From: Escherichia coli
Lineage (GTDB): Bacteria; Pseudomonadota; Gammaproteobacteria; Enterobacterales; Enterobacteriaceae
Reading direction: 5' to 3' (one strand)
Length of the DNA: 64,000 bases
Assembly: GCF_044324875.1 (NCBI RefSeq)
Contig: NZ_CP172185.1
The position numbers were made by a program. The stretch's first letter is position 1, and each line of letters begins with the position of its first letter. Positions 52,001 through 58,000 of the stretch are shown here, piece after piece.

Positions 52001-55000
52001 GGCACTGCGTGGCGAAACAGGCACCCATATTATCCACTCCCAAGAGGAGACGTAAATTAAGGAAAGCGACCGCCGCCGTGAATTTTTAATGTTCATTGCA
52101 GATTATCGTGGGCTGGAAATGATAACGGTTGGGGAGTTATTGTTTAGTTGCTAAAACAGAACGATAACCAACCCCAACCGTTCTCAATTTCGAATACTAT
52201 CTTTTCCATTTATCTCTGGATAGGCTTTGACGTCGTCCCTACTGAGTAAAATCCCCCTCATCATCCACCTAAAACCGATTGAAAACGGTCATTACTCTTG
52301 TGGCAAACAGGCTAAAGCCGTTCACGATGCTTCACTTCGCACCTTATCGTAATGAACAATACTGGTATTTCCAGTTCAGTTACGCCTACCCGTCTACCGC
52401 ATTCTTTGCCCTAACTACGGCATAGTTCGGGATTATATCAGCTGGCTAAAGCCTTATGCTCATCAGACCACATGACTCATTGAGCATGTTGAGGCGTTAC
52501 TCAAAATCTTGCCGATTAAACATATTTCGTAATTTCTTACCCTGCACTAACATATCATCAATACTATCGACAAACGTCAGTTGCAAATAGAGGTCACAGG
52601 GTCTGATTGATGTACTGTCAAGGCCGGGTCATGAAAGAGTTTGCCCTGTTCAAAGCTCATCGTTACGCACCGTCGTAGCCGATGCGGATACTCATCAATC
52701 CTCTGGATAGGTGAGGTGCGTAGTAGAGAAGCTCGGTCGTTTTTCGTTAATCTGAATCAGTACTGTCAACATATTCAAGTCGTTAATATGGATATGAATA
52801 CCTCCTTTGACCTAGAGGTACAGATGCACTACCCCCCAAGCTGTCAACGACGGATGAAAAGTGGCTCTTCCGCAACCTGGATGGAGATTTTCATGCCAGT
52901 GGACTCATGACCCTCTGCCTGAGTAGTTCAAATCCGGCTCGACCATACATCTGGCCTTTCAGCATTTTTAGCCAATTTACATGACTTTCGACCACCCCCC
53001 ATTATTCCAGCGACTGCTGATTGCCTCACATATAGCCGCAGCATCAGCTACCATCCTTGCAGCCACGCGCCGAAGTTACCACTTTCTCGTTGCTCTTTTA
53101 ACCACTCCCTCCATGGGTCCAGAAGTCCTCGCTCTGGAGGCCGGGTTGACATTTCAGGGAATGTTCCTGAACACACCCAGAGACTGACTGTCACACGTGA
53201 TAAGCCTGTAATACGGGATAAGCCTGTAATACGGGATAAGCCTGTAATACGGGATATTTCCCCTGAACCCACATCCCTTGTTATGTAGTGCCATAACCTC
53301 TGTCCAACGCTGATGCCGTTTTTGGCGGGTTTGCTGTTTAAGGCGTTCCGGACGACGGAGTGAACCGCCCCGGGAATCCTGGAGACTAAACTCCCTGAGA
53401 AAGAGGTAAACAGAATGACTAAAAATACTCGTTTTTCCCCCGAAGTCCGTCAGAGGGCGATTCGTATGGTTCTGGAAAGTCAGGGCGAATATGACTCACA
53501 GTGGGCGGCAATTTGTTCCATTGCCCCAAAGATTGGCTGTACACCGGAGACTCTGCGTGTCTGGGTACGCCAGCATGAGCGGGATACCGGAGGCGGTGAT
53601 GGCGGGCTCACCACCGCTGAACGTCAGCGTCTGAAAGAGCTGGAACGTGAAAATCGTGAACTGCGCCGCAGTAACGATATCCTTCGCCAGGCTTCCGCTT
53701 ATTTTGCGAAGGCGGAGTTCGACCGCCTCTGGAAAAAGTGATGCCACTGCTGGATAAGCTGCGTAAGCTGTACGGGGTCGGACCGGTATGCAGTGAACTA
53801 CATATTGCCCCGTCAACGTATTACCACTGTCAGCAACAGCGACATCATCCTTATAAACGCAGTGCCCGTGCGCAGCGCGATGACTGGCTGAAGAAAGAGA
53901 TACTGCGCGTATACGATGGGAATCATCAGGTATACGGTGTGCGTAAAGTCTGGCGTCAGTTGTTACGGGAAGGAATCAGGGTAGCCAGATGTACAGTGGC
54001 GCGCCTCATGGCGGTTATGGGACTTGCCGGTGTTCTCCGGGGTAAAAAGGTCCGCACTACCGTCAGCCGGAAAGCCGTTGCCGCAGGCGACCGCGTAAAC
54101 CGTCAGTTTGTGGCAGAACGTCCTGACCAGTTGTGGGTGGCTGATTTTACTTACGTCAGCACATGGGAGGGGGTCGTCTATGTGGCGTTCATCATTGATG
54201 TGTTTGCCGGATACATCGTGGGGTGGCGGGTCTCATCGTCTATGGAAACGACATTCGTGCTGGATGCTCTGGAGCAGGCGTTATGGGCCCGTCGACCGTC
54301 CGGCACAGTCCATCACAGTGATAAAGGTTCTCAGTATGTATCGCTGGCCTACACACAGCGGCTTAAGGAAGCCGGATTACTGGCATCAACAGGAAGTACT
54401 GGTGACTCGTATGACAACGCGATGGCGGAGAGCATCAATGGCCTTTACAAAGCGGAGGTAATACACCGTAAGAGCTGGAAAAACCGGACAGAAGTGGAGC
54501 TGGCCACACTCACGTGGGTGGACTGGTATAACAATCGACGATTGCTGGAAAGGCTGGGCCATATCCCACCGGCAGAAGCAGAAAAATCTTATTATGCTTC
54601 CATCGGAAACGATGATCTGGCAGCCTGAGTTCACAGATAAAACACTCTCCAGGAAACCCGGGGCGGTTCAGAGCGATGCTACAGGCACAGACAGTACTGG
54701 CTTAGGTGATTTCTTTGGTGACAACCCACTGGCAACAAGACGTATCAGAGGCATCTGTCTGTACATCATTCGTTCAGGCGCATCGCCAATATTTTTTAGC
54801 AGGTGCCATCGATCAGCTATCTGTCTGGCCTGAGGTGCACCTTCACGTGCTGCTGTCGCATAGACTCCGCCACGGTCACGTGAGACAACCTGTATTTCCG
54901 GATATTTTCTGAACCAGGTCGCCAGCGTACTCTGATCGCAACCGGGAAGCAGGACGAGGGGACGGTGAGTATCAAGATTGACAATTAACGTGCCGTAATG

Positions 55001-58000
55001 GTGGCCCCGATGCCACGCCCACTCATCAATACCGACATGAGGCGCGCCCGACTGTTTCGTCTCCGGGGTATTAATAACCCTGCGAAGAAGAGTATCAGCA
55101 CTGCAACGGAGCCCCACTGCCGTTGCTGCCTGTTTCCCGGCCTCACCTCCGGCTATTAATCCCAGTTGATGTTGTAAATTTTGTAACACCTGTGAAGAAT
55201 GCTGGGAGTGAACCGGCGAAGGGGGCAAGCGACCCGGCAAAAATTTTACGTGAACAAGCCGGGTTACGGCAGTACCAGTGGCGGACGGAAAATACAAGCC
55301 ATAGCGTCTGCCCTGAGCAGGGTAGATGCTGTATCCGGCGCCGACGATAACTATGAACAGAGTCACTACGCTTAAAGCATTCAGGACTTGTGCTGTTTTG
55401 CGTTTTCCGTGGAGATGGAGGGTTATACCGTCAGAGCTAATAATTTGTCGACTGCATCTCCATCCGCAAGGTAACTGTAGAAGTGTCTGGTGATGCTGCC
55501 AACTTACTGATTTAGTGTATGATGGTGTTTTTGAGGTGCTCCAGTGGCTTCTGTTTCTATCAGCTGTCCCTCCTGTTCAGCTACTGACGGGGTGGTGCGT
55601 AACGGCAAAAGCACCGCCGGACATCAGCGCTATCTCTGCTCTCACTGCTGCGTATTCCGCTCTATTCGATCACGGATTGGCATCGAAGTCCGATCAGCGA
55701 TTCGCATCCATTCGATCAACCGGGAACTTAACTTTTTCTACCGCTTTTTAACGCGTTTTTTCGCTGCTTTCCACTACCGGGGGATTTTTCCTCAGTGACT
55801 CTCCCTGAAGGACCACTCGGTGTGAGTTATGTACCAGTCTGTCCAGGATGGCATCTGCTGTTGTTGGGTTCTCCATCAGACCATGCCATTTATCTACCGG
55901 GAACTGGCTTACCACTATCGTGCTGCTTTGTCCGTAACGATCCTCTATGAGCTCCAGAAGGTCATTACACTGGGCGTTACTTAACTGTTCCAGCCCCAGA
56001 TCGTCCAGGATTAGAACCTGTATTTTTTGCAACTGTTTCAGATATTTCAGCCAGCTGCCATCAACACGTCCCTGAGCCAGTTGTTCCAGTAATCGCCCGG
56101 TTCTACAGTACCGGACGCTGTGTTTCTGTCGACATGCCTGTTCGCCCAGCGCATTGGCTATCCAGCTCTTGCCACATCCTGTCGGACCGGTTATCAGCAG
56201 GTTTTTCCTGTGGGTTATGTAGTGGCCGTTCAGCAGTTCTCTCATCTGTTCAGCCCGCAGACCTCTTGAGGCCGGATAGCGCAGCCCTTCCGGTGTTGCC
56301 TGGTATTTCAGGCCGGCATTTTTTCTCAACCGTGCCACACGGCTGTTTTCCCTGCTCAGAAGCTCGTCATCAACCAGCAGCGTCAGCCTTTCCTCGAACG
56401 ACAGTTCGTCGTAGGTCTGAGGCGTTTCCCGCTGCCGTATCAGGCTCCCGGCCATCGCCGGGAGTTTCAGTTGGGTCAGTTTGTTTAACAGGTTATCACT
56501 CATACTGTTGTTCCTTCTGTCAGTGGTAGTAGCCCGGACCACGCAGGTTTTCATGCTCTGAAGCATATGCCGGATGTTGTTCGCCCTGGCGGGATAATGG
56601 AAGCTCCAGGTTCTCCCGATGGTGACGCAGCAGATTGTCGATAAAGCGTCTGTCAGGGGCGTTATAGTGCAGGGCAACGTAACAGGCCTTTTCCAGCCGT
56701 TCCGGGCCGTATTTTTTCTGAAGTGCCAGCAGCCCCAGAACTGCACGATAAGCCAGTTCCGGATGGGGTTTTGCCTTCAGCATGGATTCAACCACCCGGC
56801 CTGTGGACGGGCCCGTACGTTTTCCCTGCTCGATCAGGCGTTCCGGTGTCCATGTCCCGTGCTGCCGGTGGCGCTCTGGCATGTGAAGCGGATTGGTTGT
56901 GTGTTTATATTCATGTGTGCTGCGCGGATGTTGCGCCACACACTGCCCCTTGTGCCAGAGCTGTACCACCGACTGCCCCGCCTTCAGTGACAGACGCTGA
57001 CCGACCAGTTCGTGTGGAACGGAGTACCAGTGACGGGCATATTCAACGTGGTAGTCAGGGCCAACCTTCACAGCTTTGTATTCCGTGTATTCATAAGGTG
57101 CCAGAGGCAGCGGAGAGAGTGCTGGCGCATCCAGTATGCGGAAGCGTTCTGCACGGGTTTGATTGCCGTACCCCTTCATTGGCCGGTTATTCATGTCTGT
57201 CAGTAACTCCCTAAGGCGCGCATTCAGCGCCCTGAGCGTGTGGAAGGTTTCATTACGGATGCGGGCAAGAAGCCATCGTTCAACGATGAGGACGCCGTTT
57301 TCTGCTTTTGGTTTATCTTTAGGTTTGCGTGGTCGGGCCGGGATGATAACCGTGCCATAGTGCTCAGCCAGTGCCTGATAACTGTCGTTGATGACAGGCT
57401 CATATCGATCGGCCTTTTTCACTGCGCTTCTGAGGTTATCGGGGATGAGCAGCTTCGGTACGCCGCCCAGGAAGGTCAGGCAACGGCTGTGGGCATTTAA
57501 CCATGACATCATGTCCTGACCTTCGCACGCTTCAACGTAGGTATAGTTGGACGCCCCCATTACGGCCACGAAGATTGCCACGCGGCGTATCTCACCGGTG
57601 TCCGGATTAATAACAGGAACCGTAGGACCACAGAAGTCGATAAAAAGCTTTTCGCCGGCACGATGCTCCTGGCGCATGGAGAGACGTCGCGTTTTTTTCC
57701 ACTCCCGGTAGCAACGGCAGAAGTGCGAGTATCCCATCGCTTTGTTACCCGCCTGTGCCTTGTATTCCATCCACAACAGTTGCCGCGTCACACCTGGTTT
57801 TCTCATTTCCGTATCGAAGTACAACATGTCAGGCATTACAAGCTCTGATGCAAAGGTGTCTTTGGGCGGAAAAATGAGTTTCTCCAGCGTGTCATGGGAT
57901 ATATCAGCAGGTAATGGCCATGACAGAGAAGAGGCTTTGAAGCGGGCAAGAACCTCAAAAACGGTTGAGGCGCTGATGTGTAACGTCAGTCCGATACAAC

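Follow-up and report, generated by a model that had tools for sequence, protein, structure and literature searches.

A dead ISEc38-like ISL3 element with an expanded 18-bp repeat in a nest of insertion sequences of an Escherichia coli island

In the E. coli DNA analysed here (64,000 nucleotides, referred to as the window), a minus-strand ISL3-family transposase frame is split by IS629, abuts an IS1 and ends, in conceptual translation, in three consecutive copies of the hexapeptide IPYYRL. The question raised by this locus is whether the repeat is a native part of the transposase, a functional array, or a by-product of decay. The locus is an ordinary assemblage of nested insertion sequences, some dead and some live, on an E. 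coli island. The interrupted gene is in all likelihood a dead ISEc38-like ISL3 element (ISL3-A), into which IS629 has inserted and which IS1 truncates; the triple 18-bp repeat would represent a slippage expansion within an already broken gene. The nest lies downstream of a carbamate-kinase gene and is very probably part of a mobile E. coli island carried on chromosomes and ColV-type plasmids. The initial annotation counted at least four stacked elements (ISL3, IS629, IS1, IS21); the stacking stands, whereas the number rises to at least six, a second ISL3 remnant (ISL3-B) and an IS256-family fragment having been overlooked (Table 1).

Table 1. Positions of the elements and features of the insertion sequence nest within the window
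Feature	Position	Strand	Evidence or remark
ISL3-B, heavily decayed ISL3-family transposase remnant, many stops	~52230..52841	+	tblastn; Pfam
ISL3-A 3' segment (ISEc38-like)	52842..53360	-	global alignment to L007 1314-3076; tblastn with intact 539-aa protein
Tandem array, 18 bp x 3.4 copies	53195..53256	-	Tandem Repeats Finder
+1 frameshift, gene-strand G run GGGG vs GGG in intact copy	53260..53263	-	alignment
GAG target duplication, left copy	53358..53360		corresponds to CTC (Leu) in the ISL3 gene
IS629-type IS3-family element, 1310 bp	53361..54670	+	ORFs, inverted repeats, Rfam ALIL, identity to annotated IS629
IS629 inverted repeats, 25 nt	53361-53385 and 54646-54670		92% complementary
IS629 orfA, 108 aa	53415-53741
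IS629 ALIL frameshift pseudoknot	53696-53812		Rfam, 116 bits
IS629 orfB, 296 aa	53738-54628		overlaps orfA
GAG target duplication, right copy	54671..54673
ISL3-A 5' segment, codons 9 to ~281	54674..55488	-	alignment; tblastn; Pfam DDE_Tnp_ISL3
IS1, first 160 bp with left inverted repeat	55489..55648	+	abuts truncated ISL3-A
IS21-family element inside IS1, 2639 bp	55649..58287	-	NCBIfam
istB	55748-56506		NCBIfam IS21_help_AAA, E 1e-76, 257.8 bits
istA	56520-58085		NCBIfam transpos_IS21, E 1e-84, 284.6 bits
IS1, other 608 bp up to right inverted repeat	58293..58900	+
3' fragment of IS256-family transposase gene, abuts IS1 right end	58901..59050	+	identical junction annotated by PGAP in L001 and L002

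Identity and decay of the ISL3 remnant

The assignment of the remnant to the ISL3 family was borne out by a match of its 232-aa minus-strand ORF (54668..55366) to Pfam DDE_Tnp_ISL3 (PF01610, E 4e-17) and by comparison with an intact ISEc38-like element of E. coli EC17CM7 (1763 bp; L007 1314-3076), whose 539-aa transposase, WP_012311606.1, matches NCBIfam transpos_ISL3 with an E-value of 2.7e-109. A global nucleotide alignment to this reference, which was used to map the lesions, gives ~91-92% identity over all retained parts of ISL3-A. PGAP names a copy ~94% identical to ISL3-A 'ISL3-like element ISEc38 family transposase' and, at an identical locus elsewhere, labels a frameshifted 'ISL3 family transposase' pseudogene that spans the repeat.

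The remnant had first been delimited at 53100-55487. Apart from IS629, this interval is indeed ISL3 sequence, but its left limit falls short by ~260 bp, as the alignment follows ISL3-A from 55488 down to its right terminal inverted repeat at 52842. This inverted repeat (~52842-52890) matches the left inverted repeat of the reference at 78% over 49 nt, and the native stop codon is found at 52891-52893. ISL3-A is thus a remnant and not a complete element, retaining the right inverted repeat only, while the left one was lost at the IS1 junction together with the first 25 nt of the ORF (8 codons).

ISL3-A shares with ISEc38 and its E. coli relatives, including the EC17CM7 copy, the right terminal inverted repeat, the gene order and the layout of a putative Zn ribbon, DDE_Tnp_ISL3 and internal helix-turn-helix segments. 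Unlike the intact copy it is dead: besides the 5' truncation and the IS629 split, the ORF of ~539 codons is broken by four short indels, by the loss of 347 bp from its interior (junction at ~53076-53078) and by a 36-bp expansion within the repeat array. The Zn-ribbon region carries a -1 deletion at 55387|55388 that a +1 at 55207 compensates, so that the 232-aa ORF departs from the native frame over its first ~53 residues; the frameshifted and partial ISL3-A fragment scores 17.4 bits with Zn_ribbon_ISL3 (cut-off 25.5), compared with 37.9 bits for the intact homologue. An extra G lies directly upstream of the 18-bp repeat and is common to all five island alleles aligned, and a +2 frameshift follows near 52999-53000. 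With the intact protein as tblastn query, residues 315-366, 480-505 and 505-539 fall in three different frames of the 3' segment. The short out-of-frame pieces that follow the repeat gave no Pfam matches, and homology there is recovered solely by nucleotide alignment to the intact element and by tblastn.

Origin of the 18-bp repeat

The repeat was correctly described as perfect, its three full units at 53199-53252 being identical, but it does not lie in the coding tail. It occupies ~codons 311-316 of the 539-codon gene, in the helix-turn-helix segment EISRITGLSRVTVSRW, and weak Pfam HTH matches (residues 293-338) cover the region. The reading of IPYYRL as a native C-terminal hexapeptide repeat with a natural stop draws on the fact that, once IS629 is taken out, a single open frame runs to the three hexapeptides and a stop. 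The intact homologue, however, holds a single 18-bp unit, reads it as SRITGL within the intact motif in another frame, and continues for ~225 residues beyond it. In tblastn, homology switches frame precisely where the repeat lies, IPYYRL being merely the frame carried on from upstream after the extra G at 53260-53263 has shifted it, and the stop that follows is out of frame for the same reason. A native tail, refuted by the homologue sequence, the alignment and the tblastn frame jump, deserves practically no credence, and the run of IPYYRL is an artefact of translating the shifted frame. An equally negligible probability attaches to the view that the ISL3 remnant stops at the IS629 insertion, with the repeat as an intergenic microsatellite unrelated to it. 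The out-of-frame stop and the lack of Pfam matches in the short downstream fragments would fit such a view, yet 53360-52842 aligns at ~91-92% to the intact element as far as its right terminal inverted repeat, this repeat included, and the intact gene itself holds the unit once. The ISL3 homology of 53100-53360, on which the initial annotation made its interpretation depend, is present at ~91% nucleotide identity.

Other E. coli chromosomes and plasmids of ColV type carry alleles of this locus with 1, 2 or 3 units, which further argues against a native hexapeptide repeat. The locus is covered by ~143 records, and record spans of 661, 643/642 and 625/624/623 bp occur. The 3-unit array is not a chance occurrence, as an allele 100% identical to it is carried by four independent complete genomes. 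All locus segments examined contain both the junction of ISL3-B with ISL3-A and that of the 347-bp deletion. Variation between one and three units, together with a frameshift in all five aligned alleles, indicates that the repeat would have grown by slippage in a dead gene; replication slippage as the cause is suggested by the perfect tandem units and by a partial copy of the unit (7 of 8 nt) that adjoins the array.

It could also be supposed that the copy-number variation is functional, acting as an in-frame switch on the DNA-binding helix-turn-helix of a working transposase or as a selected regulatory array. The length of the unit (18 bp, or 6 codons), its position within an HTH-like segment and the differences in unit number among strains agree with this supposition. 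Nevertheless, the upstream frameshift occurs in every aligned allele, those with two and three units included, the 347-bp deletion is shared as well, and the IS1 5' truncation is found wherever the fetched segment reached it, so that no protein can be made. Moreover, the family numbers ~2,800 copies at other E. coli loci, and their spans in the sampled listing are 1644-1648 bp, leaving no room for gain or loss of 18 bp there. A functional role is accordingly very improbable, if slightly less so than the two readings discussed above.

The array resembles the slippage-generated minisatellites (VNTRs) of bacterial pseudogenes in its perfect head-to-tail units, its adjacent partial copy and its one to three units among alleles otherwise 97-100% identical. 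It differs from VNTRs in that it carries no sign of phase-variable function and sits in an inactivated transposase gene. There is about an even chance that the 18-bp unit is a fast-changing minisatellite that could serve as a lineage marker for the carbamate-kinase/ISL3/IS1 island as it passes between plasmids of ColV type and the chromosomes of E. coli of poultry-associated and human origin, which implies no function.

Neighbouring insertions and the IS1 junction

IS629 entered ISL3-A by simple insertion: a GAG stands at each end, and other E. coli (L001, L002, L004, L008-L011) carry the exact empty site, in which GAG occurs once. Removal of the element and of one GAG leaves the frame unbroken into MALHNKGCGFRGNIPYYRLIPYYRLIPYYRLITCDSQSLGVFRNIP and a stop, as the initial annotation had proposed in joining the frame across IS629. 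The element has the length, 25-nt inverted repeats, orfA/orfB arrangement with ALIL pseudoknot and 3-bp duplication of IS629 (IS3 family; isoforms IS1203 and IS3411). Over the full 1310 bp, its identity to Stx-phage elements annotated IS629 is 95.4-95.8%; diverging by ~4-5% from the O157/Stx-phage copies, it is an isoform and not the identical element. A duplication of 3-4 bp at the insertion site has been reported for IS629 (PMC3271280), a range that the duplication at this locus fits. The Rfam scan found nothing beyond the frameshift pseudoknot. Two further IS629 copies occur within the window. Among the complete E. coli genomes in the collection, none has an IS629 inserted at exactly this site. 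The proximity of ISL3 and IS3 pieces in several genomes had suggested ISL3 as a preferred IS629 site; this was rejected, as the insertions in strain OkiPb01717 and plasmid pSA186_2 lie elsewhere.

On its other side, ISL3-A appears to have inserted into the older, plus-strand ISL3-B, which covers the N-terminus to the middle of the DDE domain and breaks off at 52841|52842 against the end of ISL3-A. The stitched conceptual peptide of ISL3-B shows 36-38% identity (tblastn, E 5e-27) to annotated ISL3 family transposases and a weak Pfam DDE_Tnp_ISL3 match (E 5.8e-4), and in other records PGAP annotates a partial frameshifted 'transposase' at this place. Target duplications of ISL3 elements are typically 8 bp long.

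The IS1 is of IS1A type, with typical inverted repeats and a total of 768 bp (160 + 608) without its IS21-family insert; the uninterrupted IS1 at the same junction is annotated IS1A by PGAP. In contrast to a simple IS1, it is split at position 160 by the IS21-family element and lacks the 8-9-bp target duplication, its flanks being gaagtgtct and gtgttcccg, in agreement with the initial annotation. The IS21-family element has ends TGCG...TGCA and a 5-bp duplication, ACTGC, at 55644-55648 and 58288-58292; uninterrupted IS1 sequence, i.e., the empty site, occurs in other loci, and a second, 100% identical copy lies at ~21503-24141 of the window. Both IS1 junctions are common to distant strains and plasmids: the ISL3-A|IS1 junction was also found in L001, L002, L004 and L009, and a 40-mer across the IS1-IS256 junction in L001 and L002.

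The missing target duplication points to a later rearrangement instead of simple insertion, and the earlier suggestion that the IS1 junction marks a deletion or inversion is consistent with it and with the truncation of ISL3-A. Adjacent deletion, recombination between IS1 copies and inversion would all leave such a junction, and sequence alone does not separate them. Homologous recombination between two IS1 copies, giving an inversion or a large deletion, is a tentative alternative to IS1-mediated adjacent deletion, somewhat short of an even chance: the lack of a duplication, the flanking of IS1 by truncated genes from unrelated IS families and the abundance of IS1 in E. coli speak for it. Against it, the 64-kb window holds neither a second copy of this IS1 nor a partner junction, and a search of the window for the missing left end of ISL3-A returned only a left-inverted-repeat scrap (32293-32322) that is not continued into ISL3 5' sequence.

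Order of events and significance

The order of events was derived from shared versus private features, without a rooted tree. An ISL3-family element, ISL3-B, would have inserted and then decayed, after which the ISEc38-like ISL3-A, originally ~1763 bp long, would have entered it in the opposite orientation. Point indels (-1, +1, +1, +2) and the 347-bp deletion may then have inactivated ISL3-A, and an IS1-associated deletion or recombination would have taken the left inverted repeat and codons 1-8 of that element, so that IS1 came to stand, with no target duplication, between truncated transposase genes unrelated to each other. In the already frameshifted gene, an 18-bp segment of the helix-turn-helix probably grew by slippage from one to two and then three units, forming a small polymorphic minisatellite. 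Finally, in the lineage of the window, IS629 would have inserted into ISL3-A (GAG) and the IS21-family element into IS1 (ACTGC). Only the intact IS629 and IS21-family elements are expected to be functional at the locus.

The result carries little biological weight and amounts to a correction of an annotation-level reading, in which the hexapeptide repeat becomes a frameshift artefact of a pseudogene and the remnant proves longer, more damaged and itself embedded in another ISL3 remnant. Its use in practice is likewise limited: the 3-unit allele and the private insertions of IS629 and of the IS21-family element can serve as strain or lineage markers. The IS1 junction, being common to distant records, indicates that the insertion sequence scaffold of the island is older than its spread over plasmids and chromosomes.

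Identity and lesions of the ISEc38-like remnant

The minus-strand remnant that is split by IS629 and cut by IS1 (ISL3-A) belongs to the ISL3 family, as the initial annotation had proposed: its 232-aa ORF (54668-55366) matches Pfam DDE_Tnp_ISL3 (E 4e-17), and the remnant aligns to an intact ISEc38-like element. Megablast found relatives in >3,300 complete E. coli genomes, mostly at 90-95% identity, and PGAP names a copy ~94% identical to ISL3-A “ISL3-like element ISEc38 family transposase”. The intact relative in strain EC17CM7 spans ~1763 bp (locus L007, 1314-3076), has imperfect terminal repeats starting TGTCA and encodes the 539-aa transposase WP_012311606.1; the lesions of ISL3-A were mapped by global alignment to this element.

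Features of the stacked insertion-sequence locus (window positions)
Feature	Position	Strand	Details
ISL3-B	~52230-52841	plus	much older ISL3-family remnant, many stops
ISL3-A	55488 down to 52842	minus	extent from global alignment
ISL3-A 5' truncation			first base is ORF nucleotide 26; left inverted repeat and 8 codons lost; IS1 from 55489
ISL3-A 1-nt deletion	55387/55388
ISL3-A 1-nt insertion	55207		compensates the deletion at 55387/55388
ISL3-A 1-nt insertion	53260-53263		in G run, GGG to GGGG (plus-strand CCCC)
ISL3-A 36-bp insertion			two additional copies of the 18-bp unit
ISL3-A 347-bp deletion	~53076-53078		reference 2496-2842, about codons 363-479
ISL3-A 2-nt insertion	near 52999-53000
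ISL3-A native stop	52891-52893		then right inverted repeat, end at 52842
IS629-type element	53361-54670		1310 bp; 25-nt terminal inverted repeats, TGAACCGCCCCGGGAATCCTGGAGA and its complement
IS629 orfA	53415-53741		overlaps orfB (ORF listing)
IS629 orfB	53738-54628		overlaps orfA (ORF listing)
ALIL programmed-frameshift pseudoknot in IS629	53696-53812		Rfam, 116 bits
IS1	55489-55648 and 58293-58900		768 bp total
IS21-family element	55649-58287		2639 bp; splits IS1 at position 160; istA and istB confirmed

A tblastn search of the window with the intact protein confirms the lesion layout obtained from this alignment and places residues 9-281 at 55489-54671, residues ~282-313 at 53360-53262 with the frame continuous after IS629 removal, residues 315-366 at 53221-53066 in another frame, and residues 480-505 and 505-539 in two further frames. 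Because of the 5'-proximal deletion and its compensating insertion, the 232-aa ORF departs from the native frame over its first ~53 residues. Elsewhere in the window, a 30-nt stretch (32293-32322, plus strand) matches the ISEc38-like left terminal inverted repeat at 90% and abuts a decayed IS3-family orfA remnant (~31960-32290); it was rejected as the displaced end of ISL3-A, being a solo inverted-repeat scrap without continuation into ISL3 5' sequence.

A second remnant, ISL3-B, has a stitched translation that matches annotated ISL3 transposases, ISAeme19 relatives among them, at 36-38% identity (E 5e-27), and in some records the PGAP label for this stretch is a partial, frameshifted transposase. 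This plus-strand remnant lies directly left of 52842, so ISL3-A inserted into ISL3-B, the remaining half of which is missing. The carbamate-kinase stop is closely followed by an 18-nt inverted repeat (AAATGATAACGGTTGGGG / CCCCAACCGTTCTCAATT, 37 nt apart, 52117-52189), which may represent a terminator or a decayed ISL3-B end.

Origin of the 18-bp tandem repeat

Tandem Repeats Finder reports a period of 18 bp and 3.4 copies at 53195-53256, with three mutually identical full units at 53199-53252. The sequence features had been described accurately in the initial annotation (IS629, GAG, the 3x18-bp repeat and the IPYYRL frame are all present), and frame continuity over IS629 also holds: with the element taken out, the frame of the 232-aa ORF runs on as ...MALHNKGCGFRGN-IPYYRL-IPYYRL-IPYYRL-ITCDSQSLGVFRNIP-stop. 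The interpretation of the repeat as a native hexapeptide in the coding tail does not survive comparison with the intact protein, which reads ...MALHNKGCSFR-EISRITGLSRVTVSRWVRSGTFPEMS... at this position. The intact gene carries one copy of the unit (TATCCCGTATTACAGGCT, gene strand), coding part of ISRITGL, at about codons 311-316 of 539 and therefore outside the coding tail; ~225 codons of homologous sequence still follow, and the stop after the IPYYRL triplet is out of frame. The native frame of the window copy (minus frame 2) would give EISRITGL-SRITGL-SRITGL-SRVTVS; IPYYRL comes from the frameshift that the additional G causes five bases upstream.

Outside this locus, E. coli copies of the family span 1644-1648 bp with no 18-bp steps among the matches listed. 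At the same carbamate-kinase/ISL3/IS1 site in other chromosomes and ColV-type plasmids (the island locus), the best 60 of 143 records fall into spans of 661 bp (n=4), 643/642 bp (n=21) and 625/624/623 bp (n=35), and when five span classes are aligned through one representative each, the unit counts are exactly 3, 2 and 1. The GGGG frameshift is present in all five representatives, and in every locus segment examined these alleles have in common the ISL3-B/ISL3-A junction and that of the 347-bp deletion, so the units expanded in an already dead gene. Slipped-strand mispairing is the likely mechanism, a step suggested by TATCACGT, which follows the unit in the island lineage and forms a direct repeat with the unit start (7/8 match); the intact copy has TGTCGCGT there.

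The unit falls in an HTH-like segment of the transposase: Pfam HTH_7, HTH_17, HTH_38 and HTH_29 give sub-threshold matches at residues 293-338 of the intact protein, and the N-terminal HTH part of an NCBIfam IS21 transposase model aligns with residues 303-394 (E 3e-16). An IS21-like HTH module appears to be inserted within the ISL3 catalytic domain of this ISEc38-like subgroup. WP_012311606.1 (L007 1408-3027; window ~53300-53066) is ~135 residues longer than the NCBIfam ISL3 model, and Pfam breaks its DDE_Tnp_ISL3 match into two stretches.

IS629, IS1 and IS21-family insertions

The element interrupting ISL3-A shares 95.4-95.8% full-length identity with Stx-phage elements annotated IS629. GAG stands at both edges (53358-53360 and 54671-54673), and 7 loci from other E. 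coli contain an exact match to the empty site expected before insertion (20 nt + 20 nt, one GAG), bearing out a simple insertion; the reported IS629 target duplication is 3-4 bp (PMC3271280). Further IS629-type copies lie at 6002-7311 (full-length, 99.7% identity) and 238-1084 (partial, 847 bp, 100% identity, minus strand). Their presence hints at recent IS629 activity, and perhaps at an IS629-bounded rearrangement close to where the window begins.

The abnormal IS1 junction noted initially is genuine: the flanks (gaagtgtct vs gtgttcccg) differ, so no target duplication is present, and the right neighbour is a 3' fragment of an IS256-family transposase gene. Either an adjacent deletion or recombination between two IS1 copies may have produced it. 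Both IS1 junctions are identical among chromosomal island copies, and the ISL3-A/IS1 junction also in 2/2 ColV-type plasmid copies examined; the rearrangement is therefore old and preceded island spread. The IS21-family insertion into IS1 is flanked by a 5-bp ACTGC duplication, and uninterrupted IS1 sequence occurs in other strains. A second, 100% identical IS21-family copy at ~21503-24141 and the two extra IS629 copies in the window point clearly to recent activity of both element types in this genome. The twin 2.64-kb element is distinct from IS100, which interrupts the same IS1 at another position in the ColV plasmids examined. About 4 kb from this IS1, an ORF (62838-63089, plus strand) resembling a divergent IS1-family InsA marks a second, non-identical IS1-type element, and in the E. 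coli comparison locus L001 its counterpart bears the annotation of an IS1 family transposase with a frameshift.

Island context and significance

The island comprises fdrA-like, DUF1116, hypothetical permease-like and carbamate kinase genes, followed by the IS scaffold, a sigma-like HTH gene and a YadA-like adhesin, and is present in many poultry-associated and human E. coli, on chromosomes and ColV-type plasmids (e.g., pAPEC-O2-211A-ColV). The small sigma-factor-like HTH gene (59320-59775, minus strand) adjoins that of the YadA-like trimeric autotransporter adhesin (59837-61438, minus strand; 533 aa), which contains an internal tandem duplication of ~29 residues in two copies and carries a frameshift annotation in some relatives' genomes. 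Four complete chromosomes share the 3-unit allele at 100% identity, and IS629 occupies the window site in 0/4 of them; the IS629 and IS21-family insertions are therefore private to the window lineage.

At least six stacked elements were found, where at least four had been counted. The locus is an unremarkable insertion-sequence graveyard in which a pseudogene harbours a small slippage minisatellite; it is of low interest, and identical loci elsewhere already carry a frameshifted ISL3 pseudogene annotation.
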